DNA of 64,000 bases from an uncultured delta proteobacterium (GCA_963808235.1 CAWEEQ010000004.1:1280001-1344000); one strand, 5' to 3'; positions 51,548 through 60,951 are shown, counted from the stretch's first letter. Numbers and translations: made by a program. Notes: generated by a model from the sequence alone, not told the origin.

Positions 51548-51643
51548 GCTATATGTGATGTGCACGAAATAACTGCTTCGTTCGAGGCGCGGCGCGCTCG
51601 AATCGGCGCCGCTCTCGCGAGGCTTCGGAGAGAGGTAGTCGCT

Positions 51644-53761
51644 ATGGCTGTGGAGGAAATCGGACGGCTTAGAACTATCGCAATCGTTGGCCAGGGCGGC
51701 ACCGGCAAGACGCAGCTCGCCGACGCGATGCTCTTCACGGCCGGCGCCACGACCCGGCTCGGCCGCCCCGACGACGGTTCGGCGGCGATGGACTTCGAGC
51801 CCGAAGAAAACAAGCATCACATTTCAATCAGCTCCGCGTTTCACCATCTCAACTGGAAAAAGACCGAAATAATCATTGCCGATACTCCCGGCTACACCGC
51901 GTTCCTGCCCGAAACGATCACAACTCTCCGTGCCGTTGACGGTGTGGTGATTCTGATAAGCCCGGGCTCCGACACCAAGATTGAATCAGAAAAAATCTGG
52001 GCCGCGACCGCCGAGCTGAAGCTGCCGCGAATCGCATTCGTGTCGAGGCTCGATCGCGAGCGCACGAGCTTCGAAAGTGCGATGAAGGATCTGGAAAAAG
52101 TGCTCGGCGCGCGCGCAGTCGCGCTGACGATCCCGGTCGGCGAAGAGCTCGGCTTCAAGGGAATCGTCGACGTGCTCGCGATGAAGGCGCTCAGCTACTC
52201 CGACACCAGCGGCAAGTTCAAGGAAGAAGAACTCACGCCCGAGCTGAAGACTCGCGCCGAAGCCGCGCGCAACGCGCTCATGGAAGCGGTTGCGGAGACT
52301 GACGACGCGCTGCTCGAGAAATACCTCGACAAAGGAACCCTCGACGATACCGAAGTGCTCGCCGCACTTCGCAGCGCCGTGATGGATCGCACCGTCACGC
52401 CGGTCTTCTGCGGGTCGGGCGCAAAGAATATCGGCATCGCGCCTCTGCTCGACGCGATCACCAACTTTTTGCCGGCGCCCAATCAGCGGCCTCCTGTCGA
52501 ATGCCAAAATCCGGTTACTGGCGAGCCGGCCAATCGTCCCGCCGATCCGGCCGCGCCATTCGCAGCCCTGGTGTTCAAGACGGTGATCGATCCGTTTGCG
52601 GGCAAGCTCTCGATCTTCCGCGTCATCTCGGGCAGCGCGCATAGCGACGGCGCCGTGCTCAACTCATCGCGCGAATCGAAAGAACGCTTCGGCCAGTTGC
52701 TGAGACTTGAGGGCAAGAAGCAGACTCCGCTCGCCATCGCGATCGCAGGCGAGATCGTCGCAGTCGCCAAGTTGAAGGACACCACCACTGGCGACACGCT
52801 GTCCGACGAGAAAGCGCCGGTGCTCGTGATGCCTCCGTTGACGCGGCCGGCCGGCGTCATCTCCTTCGCGATTCATCCCAAGACCAAGAGCGATGAGGAG
52901 AAGTCTTCCGCCGCTCTGCAGAAACTGATCGAAGAAGATCTCGCACTCGAGATGCATCGCGATCCGCAGACCCACGACATCATTTTGTCCGGCACCGGCC
53001 AGATGCATATCGAAATGACGGTCGAAAAGCTCCGCAGAAAATTTAATGTAGACGTTGAACTTCAGGCGCCCAAGGTTCCCTACAAGGAAACCATCAAGGG
53101 ACGCGCCGAATCGCAGGGCAAATACAAGCGCCAGTCGGGCGGCCGCGGCCAATACGGCGATTGTTGGCTCAAGGTCGAGCCGATGCCGCGCGGCAAAGGC
53201 TTCGAGTTCGTCGACGCGATCGTTGGCGGCGTCATCCCGCGCAACTTCATCCCGTCGGTTGAGAAGGGCGTCCGCAACACGCTGGTCGAAGGGCACCTGG
53301 CCGGCTATCCGCTCGTTGATATCAAGGTCACGGTTTTCGACGGTAGTTATCACAACGTCGATTCGTCGGACATGGCGTTCCAGATTGCGGCCTCGATGGG
53401 CTTCAAGGCGGCGCTCGAAAAGGCCCGGCCGATCATTCTCGAGCCGATCGTCGCGATCGAAGTTGCGTGCCCCGACGAATGCATGGGCGACGTAATCGGA
53501 GATCTCAATTCACGCCGCGGCAAAGTGCTCGGGATGGACAGCAAGGGCAGCGGCCAGGTGATCAAGGCTCAGGTGCCGATGTCGGAGGTGCTCAAGTATG
53601 CGCCGGATTTGCGCTCGATCACTTCGGGACGCGGCTCGTTCGAGCAACATTTCTCGCACTACGAGGAAGCGCCGGCGCCCGTCGCGGAAAAGATAATCAA
53701 GGAGACGCACGCCGCGCGCGAGGCCGCCGGCGCCAAGGCGGGCGCTCACGCGCACGCATAG
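51644..53761 (+). CDS. fusA: Elongation factor G paralog (EF-G2-like)
   Basis: GQGGTGKT, DTPGY, KYKRQSGGRGQYG, DGSYHNVDSS, GDLNSRRG; not in an str operon. Confidence 0.9.
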   Translation: MAVEEIGRLRTIAIVGQGGTGKTQLADAMLFTAGATTRLGRPDDGSAAMDFEPEENKHHISISSAFHHLNWKKTEIIIADTPGYTAFLPETITTLRAVDGVVILISPGSDTKIESEKIWAATAELKLPRIAFVSRLDRERTSFESAMKDLEKVLGARAVALTIPVGEELGFKGIVDVLAMKALSYSDTSGKFKEEELTPELKTRAEAARNALMEAVAETDDALLEKYLDKGTLDDTEVLAALRSAVMDRTVTPVFCGSGAKNIGIAPLLDAITNFLPAPNQRPPVECQNPVTGEPANRPADPAAPFAALVFKTVIDPFAGKLSIFRVISGSAHSDGAVLNSSRESKERFGQLLRLEGKKQTPLAIAIAGEIVAVAKLKDTTTGDTLSDEKAPVLVMPPLTRPAGVISFAIHPKTKSDEEKSSAALQKLIEEDLALEMHRDPQTHDIILSGTGQMHIEMTVEKLRRKFNVDVELQAPKVPYKETIKGRAESQGKYKRQSGGRGQYGDCWLKVEPMPRGKGFEFVDAIVGGVIPRNFIPSVEKGVRNTLVEGHLAGYPLVDIKVTVFDGSYHNVDSSDMAFQIAASMGFKAALEKARPIILEPIVAIEVACPDECMGDVIGDLNSRRGKVLGMDSKGSGQVIKAQVPMSEVLKYAPDLRSITSGRGSFEQHFSHYEEAPAPVAEKIIKETHAAREAAGAKAGAHAHA

Positions 53762-53787: not shown

Positions 53788-54315
53788 TTACTTGCGGCGT
53801 CGAAGCGCGTCCGACATGCCGTCATGCGGTCCCAGGCGCCGCTTGGGAATATCGTCCCACCATTCGCTCGGCGGCAGGTCGCCGCGGCGTTGCGGATGCA
53901 TCGGATAGAAAATCCGGTTGTCGGGCTTTGAAGCCTCTCCACCGACTAGCAACAGGGCCTCGTGCTCTGCGTTGTTTATGAAGCAATGGCAAATGCCGGT
54001 GCCCGCGGGAAGTGCCGCAAAGTCTCCGGCGCGCATCGCGTGAACATCGCCGTCGATCCACGCGTCCACCTCGCCCTCGAGAACGTAAACAAACTCTTCC
54101 TCTTTCTCCTCGGCGTGCGGCCAGGAGCTTCGCACTCCGGGCGGCAACCGCATCAGGTGGATGCCGATCTTCGCGAGCCCGGCAGCTTTGCCGATGCTCC
54201 TTTGATACCCCATGTATTCGTCGCTATTCGGATAATGATGCCGCGTCTCGACACACGACGCGGCGGCAATGATGAAGGGTGGTCGTTGGCTATTGCTCAT
54301 GCCGTCCTGTAACAC
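53788..54315 (-). CDS. Cupin domain protein
   Basis: PHAEEKEEEFVYVLEG, AGTGICHCFIN. Confidence 0.88.
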   Translation of the reverse strand: MLQDGMSNSQRPPFIIAAASCVETRHHYPNSDEYMGYQRSIGKAAGLAKIGIHLMRLPPGVRSSWPHAEEKEEEFVYVLEGEVDAWIDGDVHAMRAGDFAALPAGTGICHCFINNAEHEALLLVGGEASKPDNRIFYPMHPQRRGDLPPSEWWDDIPKRRLGPHDGMSDALRRRK

Positions 54316-54377: not shown

Positions 54378-54590
54378 ATGGCGCCGTTAGGAAAATCTCT
54401 GGTCTTCGCCGGTGTCGGGATGGCGCTGGTCGGCCTCGCTATCTGGGGACTCTCGTCAGTTCCGTACGTCGGCCGCATCCTCGGCGATATCTACATCCGC
54501 CGCGGAAACTTCAGCGTCTACTTTCCGCTCGCGACCTGCATCCTAATCAGCGTCATCGCGACTATACTGTTCTCGCTGATGAGGCATTAA
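54378..54590 (+). CDS. DUF2905 small membrane protein
   Basis: GRILGDIYIRRGNFSVYFPLATCILIS. Confidence 0.85.
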   Translation: MAPLGKSLVFAGVGMALVGLAIWGLSSVPYVGRILGDIYIRRGNFSVYFPLATCILISVIATILFSLMRH

Positions 54591-54593
54591 GGC

Positions 54594-56822
54594 TTGGCGG
54601 CGAATAAAACTGTCAGTCCGCGCCGGCTCGTGGAGCGCAAGCGACGCCGCCGCGAGTTGATCGCGGTTGGCGTGGCCGGCGCGACGCTCGTCGCATTCGT
54701 GCTCGCCCAGACCGAACTGCCGCCGCTCACGCGGCACACCTCGCTGGTCTCGAACCTCGCCGTCATCTCGCTCTTCAACCTGAGCTTCCTGCTGCTCGGC
54801 CTGATGCTGTTCCTGGTCGGGCGCAATCTCGCCAAAGTTATTTTCGAGCGCCGCCGCGGACTGATCGGCTCGAAGTTCCAGGTCAAGCTGGTGGCTGGAT
54901 TTATCGCCGTTGCGCTGATTCCAAGCGCCTTCCTCCTGTATGTCTCCGGCGTGTTTCTGCACGAACAAATCAATAGCTGGTTCAACCCCGAATACGAGCA
55001 GATCCTCGACGACTCGCTCGAGATCGCCAAAACCTACTATTTGAACTCGGCCAACAACGCGTCCCATTTCGCGCGCGAGCTGGCCGAGCAAATCTCCGCA
55101 CTGGGATTGCTCGCGCCGAATAAGCGCGACGATTTGAAAAAGTTCATCGCCCGGCGTCAGCAGGAATACAATCTCGGCACCATCGAGGTTTTCTCCGCCG
55201 ACCGCAAACTCCTGCTCCTCGACATCAGTCCCAAGACTCCGACCGGCATCGGCGCTTCGCCCGATTCTCCGATTATCTCACAGACTCTGAAGGGAGAGGC
55301 TCTCACTCGCACCGATCGGCTCGGCAACGCCGACGTGGTGCGCGGCTCCGCGCCGATTTACGTTTCCGCCGAGACCGACAACGTTCTTGGTGCGGTCCTG
55401 GTCGACTATTACTTGCCGAAGAGCCTGGCCACGCGTGCGACCGATATCTCGCGGGTGTCGGAAGATTATTTCCAGCTCCGGATTCTTCGCCAGCCACTCA
55501 TGAACAGCTATCTGCTGACGCTGGTCTTGATCGGACTGGTTGTGGTGACGCTCGCGAGCTGGTTCGGGATATTTTTGTCACGCGGAATCACCGGCCCGAT
55601 CAAGCTGCTTGCCCGCGGAACGCAGGCAGTTGCCGGCGGCGATCTGAACTTCCGCATTCCTGCCGTCGGCGACGACGAGATCGGCCAACTGGTCGATTCC
55701 TTCAACCAGATGACCGCCGACCTGCGCAGCTCCGGCGCCGAACTCGAGCGCCGCCGCCAGTACACAGAGACGCTGCTCCGCAACGTGTCCGCCGGTGTCG
55801 TCGGTCTTGACCATGAAGGCGTTGTCACGACGATCAATCCATGCGCCGAGCGCCTGCTCGGCCTCGACAGTGCCAGCGTGATCGGTCGCAACTACCAGGG
55901 TGCTTTTCCGCCCTCGCTCGCGCGCTCGCTGGACGACGTATTTGCGACCGCGATGCGGCCGCGCGAGGCGCGCTCGACCGTCAAGCTCGAGGTCTCGGGC
56001 ACCGAGATGGAACTAATGATGACCGCGAGCCCGCTCGGCGACACTCCGAACGCGCCCGCTGGAACAGTGCTTTTCTTCGAGGACGTGAGCCAGATCGCGA
56101 AGGTCGAGCGGATGGAAGCGTGGCGCGAAGTCGCGCGCCGAATCGCGCACGAAATCAAAAATCCATTGACGCCGATCCAGCTTTCCGCCGAGCGCCTTCG
56201 CCGCCAGCTAGGCTCGCGCGCTGGCGCCGAATCGGCGCTGGTCGAGGAATGCACCCGCGTCATCATTGGCGAGGTCGAGGACCTGAAGCGGCTCGTCAAC
56301 GAATTTTCCGCGTTCGCACGGATGCCGCATCTGAACCTGATTCCCGGCGATATCAACCTGCTCGCGAGCGAGACCGCCGCCAATTTCCGCGAAGCCAACC
56401 CCAACGTGGATTTCGCGCTTACGCTCGATGCGTCAGTGCCCCCGATTCTGATCGATCGCGAAGCCCTGAAGCGCGCGCTGGTCAACCTGCTCGACAACGC
56501 CGTCGCCGCGGTGAGCGCCGTCAATCATAACGGCGACCGCCCGCGAATCGAGGTTCTAAGCCGCCGCCGCGCCGACAATTCCATCGTCACTGTCGAAGTC
56601 GCCGACAACGGGCCCGGAATCGATCCGCGCCTGCGCACCCGCATCTTCGAGCCCTACTATTCGAGCAAGAAGGGTGGCACCGGACTCGGCCTCGCAATCG
56701 TGTCGGCGGTGGTCTCGGACCATCACGGCTTCGTTCGTGTGATCGATAACCAGCCGCATGGAAGTAGATTTGTACTGGAGTTTCCCGTACAATCCGCACA
56801 ATTCGTAAAGGCAACTGCCTGA
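54594..56822 (+). CDS. ntrY: NtrY-type membrane sensor histidine kinase (HAMP-PAS-HisKA-HATPase)
   Basis: WREVARRIAHEIKNPLTPIQLSAERL H-box, DEIGQLVDSFNQM HAMP, DNGPG, GTGLGL. Confidence 0.88.
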   Translation: MAANKTVSPRRLVERKRRRRELIAVGVAGATLVAFVLAQTELPPLTRHTSLVSNLAVISLFNLSFLLLGLMLFLVGRNLAKVIFERRRGLIGSKFQVKLVAGFIAVALIPSAFLLYVSGVFLHEQINSWFNPEYEQILDDSLEIAKTYYLNSANNASHFARELAEQISALGLLAPNKRDDLKKFIARRQQEYNLGTIEVFSADRKLLLLDISPKTPTGIGASPDSPIISQTLKGEALTRTDRLGNADVVRGSAPIYVSAETDNVLGAVLVDYYLPKSLATRATDISRVSEDYFQLRILRQPLMNSYLLTLVLIGLVVVTLASWFGIFLSRGITGPIKLLARGTQAVAGGDLNFRIPAVGDDEIGQLVDSFNQMTADLRSSGAELERRRQYTETLLRNVSAGVVGLDHEGVVTTINPCAERLLGLDSASVIGRNYQGAFPPSLARSLDDVFATAMRPREARSTVKLEVSGTEMELMMTASPLGDTPNAPAGTVLFFEDVSQIAKVERMEAWREVARRIAHEIKNPLTPIQLSAERLRRQLGSRAGAESALVEECTRVIIGEVEDLKRLVNEFSAFARMPHLNLIPGDINLLASETAANFREANPNVDFALTLDASVPPILIDREALKRALVNLLDNAVAAVSAVNHNGDRPRIEVLSRRRADNSIVTVEVADNGPGIDPRLRTRIFEPYYSSKKGGTGLGLAIVSAVVSDHHGFVRVIDNQPHGSRFVLEFPVQSAQFVKATA

Positions 56823-56867
56823 TGCTTTCCTTGCCGCGCGACGCGCGATTTCCCGGAGAAATTTGAA

Positions 56868-58145
56868 GTGAATGAGACCGTTTTGGTGGTGGATGATGAG
56901 GAGCGGATTCGGTCGTCAATTCGTGGAATCTTAAGCGACGAAGGCTTTCGCGTCGTCGATACCGGCAACGCGCCGACCGTGATGGACCTTATCGCGCGAG
57001 AGAATCCGGCCATCGTCCTGCTCGACGTATGGATGCCGGACATGGACGGCATCGAGCTGCTCCGCCGGATCAAAGCCGAGCAGCCACGCGTCCCGGTGAT
57101 CATGATCTCGGGCCACGCCAACATTCAGAACGCGGTCGCCGCCACCAAGCTCGGCGCCGCCGACTTTATCCAGAAACCATTTTCCGTCAGCGGATTGCTC
57201 GCGTCGATTGCTCGCGCGCTCGAAGGCGATTCCACCGGCCCCGACTCGTCGGACGCGGGCGGACGTAAGCTCGCGACCGGCGCGACCGCACGCAATGCGT
57301 TAGGCGCCGGCGCGATTCCTCAGCGCACCATCGCGCGTTCGATCGTGATGGGCGGGCAGGGGCTTCATTCCGGCCTCAAGACCGGCGTCATACTGCATCC
57401 GGCCCCGGCCGGATCCGGAATCGCGTTCTCGTCGCTTGCTGACGAAACTACGATCGCGGTGCGATTCGAGAACGTCAGCGACACCGGCTACAACACCACG
57501 CTCACCAGCGGCGGGCGCTCGGTCCGGACCGTGGAACATCTTCTTTCCGCTCTTCACGCATTCGGGATCACCAATCTACTGGTCAAGACCGACGACGAAG
57601 TCCCGGCGCTCGACGGCTCGGCGCTCGAGTTCTGCAAACAGATCGGCGAGGCTGGACTCACCGACCAGGAAACGACTGTGGTGCCGATTACGATCCAAAA
57701 GAAGATCGTCATCGGTTCGGAAGGCATTGGCCGCGAGTTCATCAGGGCCGAGCCCGCCGACCATCTGATCATCGACTACACTCTCGACTATCCGAATCCG
57801 ATCGGCGTGCAGCAGGTGCATTTCGAGCTGACTTCTGTCGATGCCTACGCGCGCGAGATTGCACCCGCACGCACCTTCAGCCTGGTGCGCGAGTTCCGCA
57901 AGCTCACCGAGATGGGCCTCGGGAACGGCGGCCGCCTCGACAATTTGATCCTGGTTGACGATGAAAAAGTCGTGAACACCGCGCTCCGCTTCCCCGACGA
58001 ATTCGCGCGTCACAAGATTCTCGATTTGATCGGCGATCTCTACCTGCTCGGCCGCCCGCTCCATGCTCACGTCACGGCATCGAAGACCGGCCACTCCGAC
58101 AACCTCGCACTAGTAAAAGCAATCCGCACCTCGCTGGGCAGCTGA
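56868..58145 (+). CDS. lpxC: Receiver domain-LpxC fusion (UDP-3-O-acyl-GlcNAc deacetylase)
   Basis: REC: VVDDE, LLDVWMPDMDG, MISGH, FIQKPF; LpxC: QRTI, GLHSG, RTVEHLLSAL, EVPALDGSA, IAPARTF, RHKILDLIGDL, KTGH. Confidence 0.92.
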   Translation: MNETVLVVDDEERIRSSIRGILSDEGFRVVDTGNAPTVMDLIARENPAIVLLDVWMPDMDGIELLRRIKAEQPRVPVIMISGHANIQNAVAATKLGAADFIQKPFSVSGLLASIARALEGDSTGPDSSDAGGRKLATGATARNALGAGAIPQRTIARSIVMGGQGLHSGLKTGVILHPAPAGSGIAFSSLADETTIAVRFENVSDTGYNTTLTSGGRSVRTVEHLLSALHAFGITNLLVKTDDEVPALDGSALEFCKQIGEAGLTDQETTVVPITIQKKIVIGSEGIGREFIRAEPADHLIIDYTLDYPNPIGVQQVHFELTSVDAYAREIAPARTFSLVREFRKLTEMGLGNGGRLDNLILVDDEKVVNTALRFPDEFARHKILDLIGDLYLLGRPLHAHVTASKTGHSDNLALVKAIRTSLGS

Positions 58146-58200
58146 CCCGCGCGCAAACAGCCGCATGCGATCCCGGATCGCCATGAACCCCAACGCGATT

Positions 58201-58238
58201 GTTCCCCTTCCCTCGAGTGAAGGGGTTAGGGATTAGGT
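58201..58238. repeat. REP-like palindromic repeat, copy 2
   Basis: GTTCCCCTTCCCTCGAGTGAAGGGGTTAGGGATTAGG, two mismatches to the 18674 copy. Confidence 0.7.
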
Positions 58239-58270
58239 TTGCTCGCGCTGGTGCCCCTGCAAACCTCAAC

Positions 58271-59002
58271 ATGGATCTCAAAGGAAAAGTCGCGATAGTC
58301 ACCGGCGCAAGCCGCAGAATCGGCCGCGCAATCGCACTAGAAGTAGCCGCGCACGGCGCAGCGATCGCAGTCCACTACCGATCCTCGCACGCCGAGGCGG
58401 ACGCAGTCGTCGCCGAGATCGCGCGCAAACGCGGCAAGGCGCATGCATTCCACGCCAATCTCCAAAATGTTTCCGAGATCGAGAAGATGGTCACCGACGT
58501 GCTCGCATCGTTCGGCCGAATCGACGTGCTCGTCAACTCGGCCTCGGTCTTCACGCGCAAGCCGCTCGAGGAAATCACTGAGCGCGATTGGGACTCGAAC
58601 CTCGACACCAACTTGAAGGCGCCATTCTTTCTATCCAAGTTCGCGGGCGCCGCGATGCGTAAGCAAGGCGCAGGCAAAATCGTCAACATCGGCGATTGGG
58701 CCGGCATCCGCCCGTACAAGGACTACTTGCCGTACAGCGTCTCCAAAAATGGGTTGATAGGCCTCACCCAGGCGATGGCCAAGGCGCTCGCACCCCAAGT
58801 TCAAGTCAACTGCATCGCGCTCGGCCTCGTGATGCCGCCCGAGGAGTACAGCAAAGACGAAGTCGCGCGCCTGGTAAGTCGCACCTTGACCAAAAAAATG
58901 GGCTCGCCGGAGGACGTCGCGCGCGCTGTGATCTTTTTCTGCGAGACCGACTTTGCGACCGGCGCCACCCTGGCCCTCGAAGGCGGCCGCCTCCTCAGTT
59001 AG
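58271..59002 (+). CDS. SDR, pteridine reductase/FolM-like
   Basis: VTGASRRIG, IAVHYRSS, LVNSASVF, YSVSK, LAPQVQVN. Confidence 0.85.
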   Translation: MDLKGKVAIVTGASRRIGRAIALEVAAHGAAIAVHYRSSHAEADAVVAEIARKRGKAHAFHANLQNVSEIEKMVTDVLASFGRIDVLVNSASVFTRKPLEEITERDWDSNLDTNLKAPFFLSKFAGAAMRKQGAGKIVNIGDWAGIRPYKDYLPYSVSKNGLIGLTQAMAKALAPQVQVNCIALGLVMPPEEYSKDEVARLVSRTLTKKMGSPEDVARAVIFFCETDFATGATLALEGGRLLS

Positions 59003-59868
59003 CCCAGATCGCGGAGAATCTCTCTAGCGGTGGACATCCAGTAGGCGGTCCATGCCGGAGGGTGATGACGAATCGACCAATCCACCTGCCGGACGATCAT
59101 GTGCGCCAAATAGACCGTGAGCGCGTCATGTCCCGAGTGATCGATCACCTCGCGCCAAAGCGGATCTCGCACTTCTCGATTGCCGTACGAATAGAAAAGA
59201 AAAGTTGCCAGATCGAAGCCCCGATCGCCGGCACATACGCCGTCCCAATCGATCACGCCCGTGACATATTCTCCATCATTGAGCACGTTGCCCGGATTGA
59301 AATCCCAATGAACGATGTCGCCGGTGATGAATATCCCGTTCGCGTGGCGGACGACCAATTCCTGAACTGTCTCGAGCAGCGCCGCGCTCTCCGCGGAGTA
59401 GTCGCGCAGCGTGTCGATGACGCAGTACCGCTCGAAGCCTTTCAGCACACCGTCGATCACTCGGCCCGGCCACTCCGGCGGCAGGTCGCCGGCGAGCCCG
59501 GCCTGAATACGATTGATCGCGATCAATTCGCGAACCATCGAGGGTGTGATCGTCTGGCTCGGGCGCCCCGGCATCATCGCCTGAATCGAGTACTTAGTGC
59601 CGGCATCGTCGCCGACGCATACATACAAGGGAGCTGGATATCCGGCTTCTCGCAGGCGTTTCGTGCTCTGTTGAGCTTCTTCCGAGCGGGTTTCCGTGCC
59701 GTACCCGAACTTCAGAACAAATCGTTCGCCGACCCCGTCGGTGAGGATATAAGCGGCGTGGCTCTCTCCCATTTCGATGCGATCGCGCAGAGTAAACGCG
59801 GTACGATGGCGCGAATTTATCTCCGCGACGAGTGCGTCGACGTCAACTGGATTTCCATCCGAGGGCAT
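58999..59868 (-). CDS. Aminoglycoside phosphotransferase/kinase-like family protein
   Basis: FVLK, VHWDFNPGNVL, GVIDWD. Confidence 0.85.
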   Translation of the reverse strand: MPSDGNPVDVDALVAEINSRHRTAFTLRDRIEMGESHAAYILTDGVGERFVLKFGYGTETRSEEAQQSTKRLREAGYPAPLYVCVGDDAGTKYSIQAMMPGRPSQTITPSMVRELIAINRIQAGLAGDLPPEWPGRVIDGVLKGFERYCVIDTLRDYSAESAALLETVQELVVRHANGIFITGDIVHWDFNPGNVLNDGEYVTGVIDWDGVCAGDRGFDLATFLFYSYGNREVRDPLWREVIDHSGHDALTVYLAHMIVRQVDWSIRHHPPAWTAYWMSTAREILRDLG

Positions 59869-59889: not shown

Positions 59890-60951
59890 CTACGGAGCAG
59901 GGGGCGGCGGCTCTTCTTTCGGAGGATTTTTGAATTCGATCTTCGCAGTCTTGGCGAGCTTTTTCAGAAGCGCCTTCACGACTTCGTTCTGATTGTAGTC
60001 AAGCAGGACCATCGCGACTTTGGCCTTCACTTCAGGGAGCGGCGAGATCGATTCGCCGCGCCGCGCCACCACCTTGATAAAGCTGAAGCCGAGATTCGAC
60101 TGCACGATTTGCGTTGTTTGTCCGACCGGCGTCGCGAACACCATCTTGTCCACGACCGGCGGGAGCTGCCCGGGCCGGAAGTAACCGAGGTCTCCGCCTT
60201 TCGCGGCCGACTGCGTGTCCTCTGAATTCTTTTGCGCAAGCGCCGCGAAGTCTTTGCTCTTCTGCGCTTCTTTGTAGAGCTTCAGGATCTTATCCTCGGC
60301 CGCTTTCTTCTGCGCGTCGGTTGCCTTGGGTGGAATCTTCACCGCGATATGCGCGATTTGCACCTCGCCCGGATCCTTCACGAACAAGTCGTGATGCTCC
60401 TCGTAGTATTGCTTGATTTGCGCGTCGGTCGGCTGCACATGATGCGCCCGGAATTCGTCGTCGAGCATTTTTTCGATCAACATCGATCCGCGCACCGCGT
60501 TCATCAGTTGCGCGTCGGGAGCACCGCCGGTGTTGACCGCCGCGCCGCTCGCGCCGGCGACCTGGAACTCGCGCGCGCGCTGCGCCACTTCGCCGTCGGA
60601 CACCGTGATCTTGCGCCGCGCCGCCTCCTGCAAAAGAAGACGCCGGCCAACCAGGTTTTCCGCCGCGTCGCGAAAGACCGCCTTGGTTTCCTCGGTGCTG
60701 GTGGCGTTGAGCATCTTCTCCTCGGTCTTCGCATAGTCGGAGACTTCCGCCGCCGTTATCGGCGCGCCGTTAACCGTGACTACGACCGGATCTTTTGGAT
60801 CGGGCTTGACGAGCGGAATTATGCCCAGGAAGCGCTGTTCCCAACTGAGACCCGATTGCCCCAGCTGAGCGCGGATCGGCGGGACGCTTGCAACCGCAAT
60901 GGCAAACGCCACAATCAGAACTGCGAGCGATCTTCGGCAAATGCCCATCAA
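59890..60951 (-). CDS. SurA/PrsA-like parvulin peptidyl-prolyl isomerase
   Basis: Signal peptide, VVTVNG, AHIAV, FAALAQKNSED..SAAKGGDLGYF. Confidence 0.9.
   Translation of the reverse strand: MMGICRRSLAVLIVAFAIAVASVPPIRAQLGQSGLSWEQRFLGIIPLVKPDPKDPVVVTVNGAPITAAEVSDYAKTEEKMLNATSTEETKAVFRDAAENLVGRRLLLQEAARRKITVSDGEVAQRAREFQVAGASGAAVNTGGAPDAQLMNAVRGSMLIEKMLDDEFRAHHVQPTDAQIKQYYEEHHDLFVKDPGEVQIAHIAVKIPPKATDAQKKAAEDKILKLYKEAQKSKDFAALAQKNSEDTQSAAKGGDLGYFRPGQLPPVVDKMVFATPVGQTTQIVQSNLGFSFIKVVARRGESISPLPEVKAKVAMVLLDYNQNEVVKALLKKLAKTAKIEFKNPPKEEPPPPAP

Follow-up and report, generated by a model that had tools for sequence, protein, structure and literature searches.

Introduction

Can a two-component system have as its output the very enzyme that commits a bacterium to lipid A synthesis? 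The question is raised by positions 54,378 to 58,145 of a 64,000-nucleotide stretch of DNA from an uncultured delta proteobacterium (GCA_963808235.1 CAWEEQ010000004.1:1280001-1344000; the whole stretch is called the window in what follows), where the gene for an NtrY-like sensor histidine kinase is followed by a single open reading frame (ORF) in which a receiver (REC) domain precedes the deacetylase LpxC. LpxC, an antibiotic target, carries out the step that commits the cell to lipid A and that is kept under tight control; enzyme-output response regulators, for their part, are well known from CheB and others. An earlier note on this DNA had proposed that the enzyme itself is the output of the two-component system. 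Our best reading of the sequences is that an activator of lpxC transcription was captured by its own target, so that the kinase would now act on the enzyme itself. We consider it likely that the locus is a three-gene unit encoding a response regulator with the cell's sole LpxC as its output domain, that this regulator arose by fusion with an activator, and that phosphorylation of D53 in its receiver sets LpxC output.

The Window Encodes a Receiver Domain Joined to a Complete LpxC

The REC-LpxC ORF (56868–58145, plus strand; 425 residues, GTG start) is separated from the kinase gene (54594–56822, plus strand; 742 residues, TTG start) by a 45-bp spacer (56823–56867, plus strand) that holds a Shine-Dalgarno sequence, GGAGA (56855–56859), 8 nt 5′ of the GTG. 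The arrangement described in the earlier note, a kinase followed 45 bp later by one continuous 425-residue ORF, is thus borne out. Its placement of the kinase start at 54378 was wrong: this position is the ATG of a separate gene (54378–54590, plus strand) for a 70-residue small membrane protein of the DUF2905 family (PF11146; Pfam E = 3.9e-19 for the translation from this ATG), and the kinase begins at 54594. The DUF2905 ORF lies in the kinase frame and its stop codon ends 3 nt ahead of the kinase TTG, which suggests that it probably opens the operon and that the unit probably consists of three genes: DUF2905 membrane protein, NtrY-like kinase, and REC-LpxC. Homologues of DUF2905 are found directly 5′ of the kinase in a related locus (L014, in genome G143) and 5′ of standalone lpxC in three others (L032, L048, and L049), a recurrence that suggests that the protein may be an accessory component of the kinase/LpxC system.

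Residues 1–120 (56868–57227, plus strand) form the receiver domain, with PF00072 (Response_reg) matching residues 5–114 at E = 9.2e-32. It is indeed an NtrX-like receiver with all phosphoacceptor residues, as had been claimed: the acidic pair D9 D10 with E11, the phosphoacceptor D53 in the motif LLDVWMP, S81, F100, and K103-P104-F105 are all present. Its best solved relatives are two structures of Brucella NtrX, 4d6x and 5m7n (E about 1e-25); NtrX is also the best NCBIfam response-regulator model for the protein (NF051870, which matches the receiver only and stays, at 127 bits, below its cut-off of 600), and the AlphaFold2 (AF2) model of the domain is a (βα)5 fold, with five alternating strand/helix pairs from the strand at residues 4–8 through the helix at residues 107–119. 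In an alignment of 44 fused orthologues, 31%–89% identical to the window protein (alignment A2), S81 and K103-P104 are conserved in every one of the 44, D10 never varies, two sequences have Glu for D9, and D53 is conserved in 43. The sole exception at D53, P0140 (a database representative of 454 residues), carries Asn in place of Asp and may be a locked or pseudo-receiver. In the Pfam search of the window protein there was no match to the sigma54-interaction AAA+ domain (PF00158) and none to the helix-turn-helix (HTH) domain HTH_8, residues 121–151 being a disordered linker. Judged by its sequence, the protein is derived from an NtrX/NtrC-type regulator yet is not one itself.

The linker (57228–57320, plus strand) is predicted to be disordered, with a predicted local distance difference test score (pLDDT) below 50 over residues 121–144 of the AF2 model. 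It is rich in Gly, Ala, Ser, and Asp and has no Met, in agreement with its earlier description as a Gly/Ala/Ser linker without an internal Met, and it varies among the 44 orthologues, being 26–116 residues long with zero conserved columns. One low-depth contig of a metagenome run (X5) skips 70 nt within the linker-coding stretch (57238–57309) and probably derives from a relative whose linker differs.

The remainder of the protein is a complete LpxC (UDP-3-O-acyl-GlcNAc deacetylase) domain (residues 152–425; 57321–58145 with the stop codon, plus strand). PF03331 matches residues 152–419 with E = 4.8e-83 and 279.2 bits (cut-off 27), covering profile positions 1–266 of 268, and the NCBIfam equivalog model TIGR00325 (lpxC) reaches 233 bits, above its cut-off of 187.25. 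LpxC of P. aeruginosa aligns at E = 9e-50, with the TVEH, HKILD..GD, and GH motifs conserved. The motifs of the window protein are TVEH (E223 H224), HKILD (H382 K383 D386), and KTGH (H409), and E223, H224, H382, K383, D386, D390, and H409 are conserved in 44 of 44 sequences in A2; we take the Zn ligands (His, His, Asp) and the catalytic Glu and His to be among these positions, and the claim of a complete LpxC with Zn ligands and catalytic residues in place is confirmed to that extent. The AF2 model (mean pLDDT 88.2) matches Aquifex LpxC (5u86) in Foldseek with E = 1e-32, a target-side TM-score (TMt) of 0.95, and a root-mean-square deviation of 1.6. The domain ends shortly past its last position aligned to the P. 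aeruginosa enzyme, which is ∼15–20 residues short of the C terminus of that enzyme, and its fold is closest to that of the short Aquifex enzyme.

The source genome, that of a soil bacterium (4.59 Mb in 4 contigs, 92.95% complete), has a single PF03331 match, the REC-LpxC gene, and hence no second, standalone lpxC in what is assembled, a point that the earlier note had wished to see checked. LpxB and LpxK are found elsewhere in the genome. With a sole LpxC match, the catalytic residues kept, and LpxB and LpxK present, the primary role of the protein must be enzymatic, and on these sequence grounds REC-LpxC would be the genome's housekeeping lipid A deacetylase. The same facts bear on a reversed flow of signal, in which LpxC would sense its substrate or product and the receiver would serve as a phosphate sink that tunes signaling from the kinase to other targets. 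Phosphate-sink receiver domains exist, and the kinase could have further targets; but the evidence for a primary enzymatic role, together with the lack of any other NtrX-like receiver close to the kinase, makes such a reversal very improbable in our view.

The Fusion Is Genuine and Widespread

That the joined gene is an artifact, i.e., a misassembly, a frameshift, or a recent ntrX-lpxC deletion in one genome, has in our estimate almost no chance of being right. Within a collection of 5.8 billion proteins, both Pfam domains are present in 120 of the 120 best-listed clusters at 90% identity (73%–100% identical to the window protein and from several sources); where a source is named it is Candidatus Binatus or Binataceae, and the proteins are annotated simply as LpxC. 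The sequencing runs considered (18, from 11 studies, none of them RNA) yield short, low-depth metagenome contigs, none of which covers the full stretch. A soil metagenome contig from run X1 is identical to the window over 57025–57318, and a 624-nt contig piece from run X5 of another study (record 32) spans 56888–57511, that is, REC, linker, and LpxC, with no indels listed. The architecture in 120 of 120 clusters and an independent contig across the junction argue that the fusion is no product of assembly, and the mapping over the linker that had been proposed as a check thus speaks for the continuous gene.

The window's phylum group, from which 151 genomes were sampled, is that containing Desulfonema magnum, and a search centered on the D. 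magnum genome gave the same places; this and the phylum-group counts below are samples, not censuses. LpxC was found in 144 of the 151, at a single locus in 142 of these 144, and 35 of the 144 carry a fused form, which is the only LpxC locus in 34 (the exception, G034, also carries a standalone lpxC). REC-LpxC accounts for 24 genomes, including that of the window and all 4 others of its class; G011 and G090 were counted by match range only, the others by BLAST/Pfam on loci or by full-length matches. A longer form, REC-AAA+-LpxC (685–776 residues), is found in 11 genomes of the group. REC-LpxC also occurs in 15 of 121 sampled genomes in the phylum group of a metagenome-assembled genome (MAG) titled 'Nitrospirae bacterium' and in 9 of 121 in that of an acidobacterial (Thermoanaerobaculia) MAG, i.e., in 24 genomes of two further phylum groups, and REC-LpxC was seen in 0 of 101 sampled genomes in the phylum group of a Rokuibacteriota MAG. 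Among the best 150 matches in a library of 1.84 billion representatives, ∼20 are fused proteins of 412–505 residues and ∼15 of 650–736 residues, so that dozens of 50%-identity representatives are of fused length (4 verified by Pfam, the rest by length and matched range), and a related-loci search of genome contigs returned at least two fused forms among the best 80 loci. REC-LpxC is widespread rather than a one-genome curiosity, and the search for the architecture and for ntrY synteny across genomes that had been called for finds the fusion conserved, with the kinase adjacent in some of the loci.

Some genomes have both REC-LpxC and a standalone LpxC: G034 (standalone at L051 on contig C33, fused at L027 on contig C11), G160, G224, G254, and G153. 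An extra standalone LpxC is present in 3 of 5 tested genomes of the 'Nitrospirae' group, and the fused copies of G034 and of that group cluster together in the LpxC tree described below, a pattern that suggests that the fused gene was transferred into the two-LpxC genomes as an extra copy.

A triple fusion of kinase, REC, and LpxC, seemingly encoded by frames of 1007–1423 residues in G143, G110, and G076, was rejected: these are overlapping stop-free frames in DNA of 67%–76% GC, and in all three genomes kinase and REC-LpxC are encoded by two distinct ORFs that differ in frame and have their own starts.

The NtrY-like Kinase and Its Candidate Partner

By Pfam, the kinase comprises NtrY_N (a membrane region), a weak dCache_3, HAMP, PAS, HisKA (with the H-box HEIKNPL), and HATPase_c. 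The NtrY_N match is barely over threshold (25.9 bits against a cut-off of 23.2), and the 25 best NCBIfam matches of the protein include no NtrY-specific model. The source genome holds no close paralogue of it, the next best tblastn match scoring 116 bits against 1350 for the kinase itself. Its relatives, 34%–46% identical over nearly the full length, adjoin lpxC in fused or separate form: the kinase gene lies directly 5′ of the fused gene in 5 of 5 Binatia-class loci (the window and those of 4 genomes of the same class) and also in 5 REC-AAA-LpxC loci (L030, L031, L036, L037, and L040). In 5 of 5 tested genomes where the fused gene stands without a kinase neighbor, an NtrY-like kinase is encoded at another place, and no receiver gene lies within 1.5 kb of it. 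A kinase without a nearby receiver and a fused gene without a nearby kinase make up what looks like a pair of orphan kinase and orphan regulator, and a partner kinase is presumed for REC-LpxC in such genomes.

Is there another regulator that the kinase might serve? The source genome contains 19 strong sigma54-activator matches, and none of these is beside the kinase; in particular, a separate ntrX, for which a check had been proposed, is not seen, in that no NtrX-like activator adjoins the kinase gene. Among the receivers of the source genome, the one closest to the activators of two separate-gene loci (L032 and L033; see below) is the LpxC-fused one (55% and 51% identity over 119 residues), and in a receiver tree built on 122 columns the fused and activator receivers stand apart from the genome's other receivers with a weak support of 69. 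This tree and the LpxC tree below are quick searches and unrooted.

Separate-Gene Relatives, Intermediates, and a Candidate Origin

The gene order lpxC, NtrY-like kinase, REC-AAA+-HTH_8 activator, with lpxC directly 5′ of the kinase, is found in the Desulfobacterota group (L032, L033, L048, L049, and L050) and at L058, L063, L064, L065, and L084, with records titled Rokuibacteriota, Thermoanaerobaculia, Candidatus Acidoferrum, and 'Deltaproteobacteria' also among those that have it. At L051, L067, and L127 (the last from Desulfonema magnum), lpxC and the kinase are seen, the activator being not found or outside the locus. The first of these is the standalone lpxC of G034, which carries a sigma54-type promoter; an NtrY-like kinase lies on its 3′ side, with no activator gene in the 1.6 kb past the kinase. 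In the activators aligned from five of the separate-gene loci, the Walker A, GAFTGA, and Walker B motifs are all intact, so that these are true sigma54 activators.

Promoter elements tell the same way. We scored a sigma54-type element as a −24/−12 sequence, TGG-N9-TGC, with at least 9 of 12 consensus letters, and find one 30–90 bp 5′ of lpxC in 12 of the 13 lpxC-kinase loci (12 matches in 1,638 searched bases, against 0.15 expected at the loci-wide rate). For comparison, such an element is present in 9 of 71 named standalone-lpxC loci without a kinase on the 3′ side. Seven of these nine are all 7 of the Nitrospira-type records (L060, L062, L074, L080, L090, L095, and L107), with the element 39–111 bp 5′ of lpxC; sigma54-driven lpxC may be general in the Nitrospira phylum. 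Ahead of 44 starts of kinase or fused genes, no element reached a score of 9, and in the window the search found none in the 45-bp spacer and none in the region 5′ of the kinase.

This picture agrees with work on D. vulgaris, where the response regulator DVU2934 shares an operon with a kinase and a DNA-affinity-purification chip (DAP-chip) experiment gave lpxC as the single target of the regulator, and on S. fumaroxidans, where lpxC lies directly 5′ of the operon orthologous to that of DVU2934 (both PMC3333781). The match between separate-gene synteny with sigma54 promoters and the DVU2934 finding provides an independent argument for a link between the kinase and lpxC.

Between the separate genes and REC-LpxC stand proteins of intermediate build. 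In 20 aligned REC-AAA-LpxC proteins, Walker A is kept in 18, GAFTGA in none, the DE of Walker B in none, and the arginine-finger region is unconserved; a segment alignable to HTH_8 lies between the AAA+ lid and LpxC in 12 of the 20, with Pfam calling HTH_8 in 0 of 6 scanned. Two further proteins, P0138 and P0139 (491 and 505 residues), are REC-HTH_8-LpxC without AAA+; P0138 scores above the HTH_8 cut-off of 22 bits (25.7) and P0139 below it (20.9). Proteins of this build may still bind DNA besides carrying the enzyme. The architectures thus form a series: separate genes; REC, degenerate AAA+, HTH remnant, and LpxC; REC-HTH-LpxC; and REC-LpxC. The decayed AAA+ and HTH parts of the intermediates indicate that LpxC was joined to the C terminus of a whole activator, of which the receiver was kept as the rest later decayed. 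Two points of the earlier note are to be amended here. An NtrX-like origin of the regulator stands insofar as the receiver is nearest to NtrX, but the ancestor appears to have been a GAFTGA-bearing sigma54 activator of the NtrC type and not demonstrably an alphaproteobacterial NtrX; and LpxC, which is now the output domain, did not simply replace the AAA+-HTH output of the regulator but was apparently appended to the entire activator, the decay of AAA+ and HTH coming afterwards.

In a tree of LpxC domains (113 rows), a branch of length 0.50 with a Shimodaira-Hasegawa-like approximate likelihood ratio test (SH-aLRT) value of 99 has 43 of the 47 standalone LpxCs on one side and, on the other, every one of the 66 fused LpxCs, which come from three phylum groups; standalone LpxCs from the same phyla as the fused forms lie on the standalone side. 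This split supports the view that the fused lineage arose once and then spread, also from phylum to phylum. As in present-day relatives, the ancestral kinase would have phosphorylated a sigma54 activator and thereby switched on the sigma54 promoter ahead of lpxC. Once activator and target were fused, DNA binding and sigma54 contact would have become dispensable, and AAA+ and HTH would have decayed and been deleted, with the receiver retained. On balance we narrowly favor the view that the switch arose in this way, by fusion of an lpxC-dedicated sigma54 activator to the product of its own target, that post-translational control replaced transcriptional control, and that intermediates of every stage survive.

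Proposed Mechanism and Its Alternatives

How might the receiver act on the enzyme? We propose that the kinase phosphorylates D53 and that LpxC output is set post-translationally by whether or not the receiver is phosphorylated. The receiver of CheB, as long as it is unphosphorylated, packs against the active site and blocks it, and phosphorylation lifts the block. By analogy, the preferred scheme is one in which the unphosphorylated receiver would pack on LpxC and hold the enzyme off, and phosphorylation would release it and turn LpxC on. Because sigma54 promoters are activator-dependent, a phosphorylated ancestral regulator would have meant more LpxC, and a fusion that kept this sign would have needed no rewiring; given that regulation exists, we therefore incline modestly to activation as the effect of phosphorylation. 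The AF2 models give a hint of fixed packing between REC and LpxC: the window protein has a predicted TM-score (pTM) of 0.85 and an orthologue that is ∼46% identical to it (L021) one of 0.88, and a superposition on LpxC only covers a query-side TM-score (TMq) of 0.58–0.62 of the model. A complex prediction with LpxC (148–425) and REC (1–120) as separate chains, using the A2 alignments, gave a score of 0.01 and a mark of 0.32 and speaks neither for nor against binding.

The receiver could instead control the amount or location of LpxC and leave catalysis alone, through the exposure or hiding of a degron (as in RssB- or CpdR-type regulation), dimerization, or membrane association; flux would then depend on degradation by a housekeeping protease or on how well LpxC reaches its membrane-bound substrate. 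The accessible text of a 2025 lipid A review (PMC12444477) describes LpxC in other bacteria as controlled mainly by proteolysis or partners (FtsH/LapB, Lon, MurA), and the FtsH degron of E. coli LpxC lies in the C-terminal tail, according to the title of a reference (B22) cited in PMC3333781; the early end of the window LpxC, resembling the short Aquifex enzyme, and the Walker A motif kept in 18 of 20 AAA+ intermediates, which suggests phosphorylation-driven oligomerization in the past, can be read along the same lines. (A LapB match, sought in the source genome with PF18073, Zn_ribbon_LapB, was not found; the model has 28 positions and also fires in Gram-positive controls, and the result is hence uninformative.) On the other side, an intramolecular, packed state would account at least equally well for the high pTM that both models have. 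We regard control of amount or location as unlikely, if well worth weighing; it would in any case still be a phospho-switch on LpxC that differs in its last step alone, and the present data do not distinguish it from control of catalysis.

Several observations weigh against a phospho-switch of the origin proposed here. The grouping in the receiver tree is weakly supported (69) and includes another receiver of the source genome. Outside the window's class, the majority of REC-LpxC genes lack a kinase neighbor (the 10 loci L018–L027; L139–L146), and the loci of the 'Nitrospirae' and acidobacterial groups have none within 1.5 kb. The phosphoacceptor Asp is replaced by Asn in P0140. Four entries of standalone length (P0162, P0169, P0180, and P0199) lie inside the fused clade of the LpxC tree, where they may be fragments or secondary un-fusions; the base of that clade is poorly resolved, with the order and number of AAA+ losses unsettled and the drawn topology requiring several. 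Finally, NtrYX lowers lpxC transcripts in alphaproteobacteria according to the accessible text of PMC7240162 and PMC12444477, and the sign of control is thus not uniform.

The lack of adjacent kinases and the loss of the Asp in P0140 are also what one might expect if the receiver were an evolutionary leftover or a structural or dimerization module, with LpxC constitutively active and the kinase signaling to another regulator, for which any of the 19 strong sigma54-activator matches could serve in principle. However, the phosphorylation residues are intact in 43 of 44 sequences across three phylum groups, while AAA+ and HTH have decayed or vanished around them, which is the signature of selection on phosphorylation, and no other candidate partner adjoins the kinase, be it here or in the 5 of 5 orphan-kinase genomes. 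We consider a leftover receiver improbable and retain phosphorylation of D53 by the neighboring kinase as the probable input to LpxC.

Locus Context

The unit is flanked on its 5′ side by genes for an EF-G-family GTPase with all five EF-G domains (51560–53761, plus strand) and a cupin (53788–54315, minus strand), and on its 3′ side by genes for a short-chain dehydrogenase (58199–59002, plus strand), an APH-family phosphotransferase (58999–59868, minus strand), and a SurA-like periplasmic peptidyl-prolyl isomerase of the outer-membrane protein chaperone family (59890–60951, minus strand). The SurA-like gene lends the surroundings of REC-LpxC an envelope flavor.

Discussion

If the proposal is correct, a phosphorylation switch within LpxC itself would be a further mode of control of this enzyme, specific to LpxC, unlike the broad NtrYX regulons, and the data suggest that the synthesis of outer-membrane lipid could be switched directly by phosphorylation. 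The family would also provide an unusually complete natural series for the capture of a transcription factor by its target enzyme, and the signal sensed by the kinase would be a lead to what poorly studied soil and sediment lineages monitor for outer-membrane balance. No description of a receiver-LpxC protein was found in the full-text literature searched (subscription journals and supplementary files lay outside the search), in keeping with the earlier note's statement that no characterized example is known. In its accessible text, the 2025 review (PMC12444477) lists proteolysis, partner proteins, and transcription as the means of LpxC control, and there its mentions of phosphorylation concern LpxK only and a fusion is not mentioned.

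The nearest parallel in design is CheB, which likewise has an N-terminal receiver, a flexible linker, a C-terminal hydrolase, and a cognate kinase gene nearby; the pTM of both AF2 models (0.85 and 0.88) suggests two packed domains here as well. The differences are that the output of REC-LpxC is a Zn-dependent deacetylase of an essential biosynthesis and not an enzyme of chemotaxis adaptation, that its receiver comes from an NtrC/NtrX-type activator, and that autoinhibition is proposed here by analogy.

The likeness to NtrY/NtrX lies in the kinase, compared by domain order, which is NtrY-like, and in the receiver, which is nearest to Brucella NtrX. In R. sphaeroides as well as in C. crescentus, NtrYX affects the envelope and lpxC transcripts, and in R. 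sphaeroides the effect on lpxC is reported to be indirect, with no NtrX site found at lpxC (PMC7240162 and PMC12444477, in the parts accessible). Control by alphaproteobacterial NtrYX is thus transcriptional, with lpxC a single member of a regulon that runs to dozens of genes, whereas the regulator in the window has neither the AAA+ nor the HTH of NtrX and is covalently joined to LpxC. Likened by gene order, the DVU2934 cluster shares the sequence lpxC, kinase, activator with the separate-gene loci of several phyla, 12 of 13 of which have the sigma54-type promoter. There, separate proteins act through transcription; the window would represent a collapsed form of the same system, without the sigma54-type promoter.

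Control by FtsH/LapB/YejM and by MurA relies on a protease with an adaptor or on a partner enzyme, and none of these uses a two-component phosphorylation site on LpxC. As a joining of LpxC to a second domain, the protein resembles the bifunctional LpxC-FabZ fusion (NF009667, for which the window protein scores 200 bits against a cut-off of 465, through its LpxC half); in LpxC-FabZ, however, the partner is a C-terminal enzyme of the pathway and not an N-terminal signaling domain. Set beside these systems, the receiver-LpxC protein is a new variety among response regulators with enzyme outputs, and one whose origin can be traced with unusual clarity.

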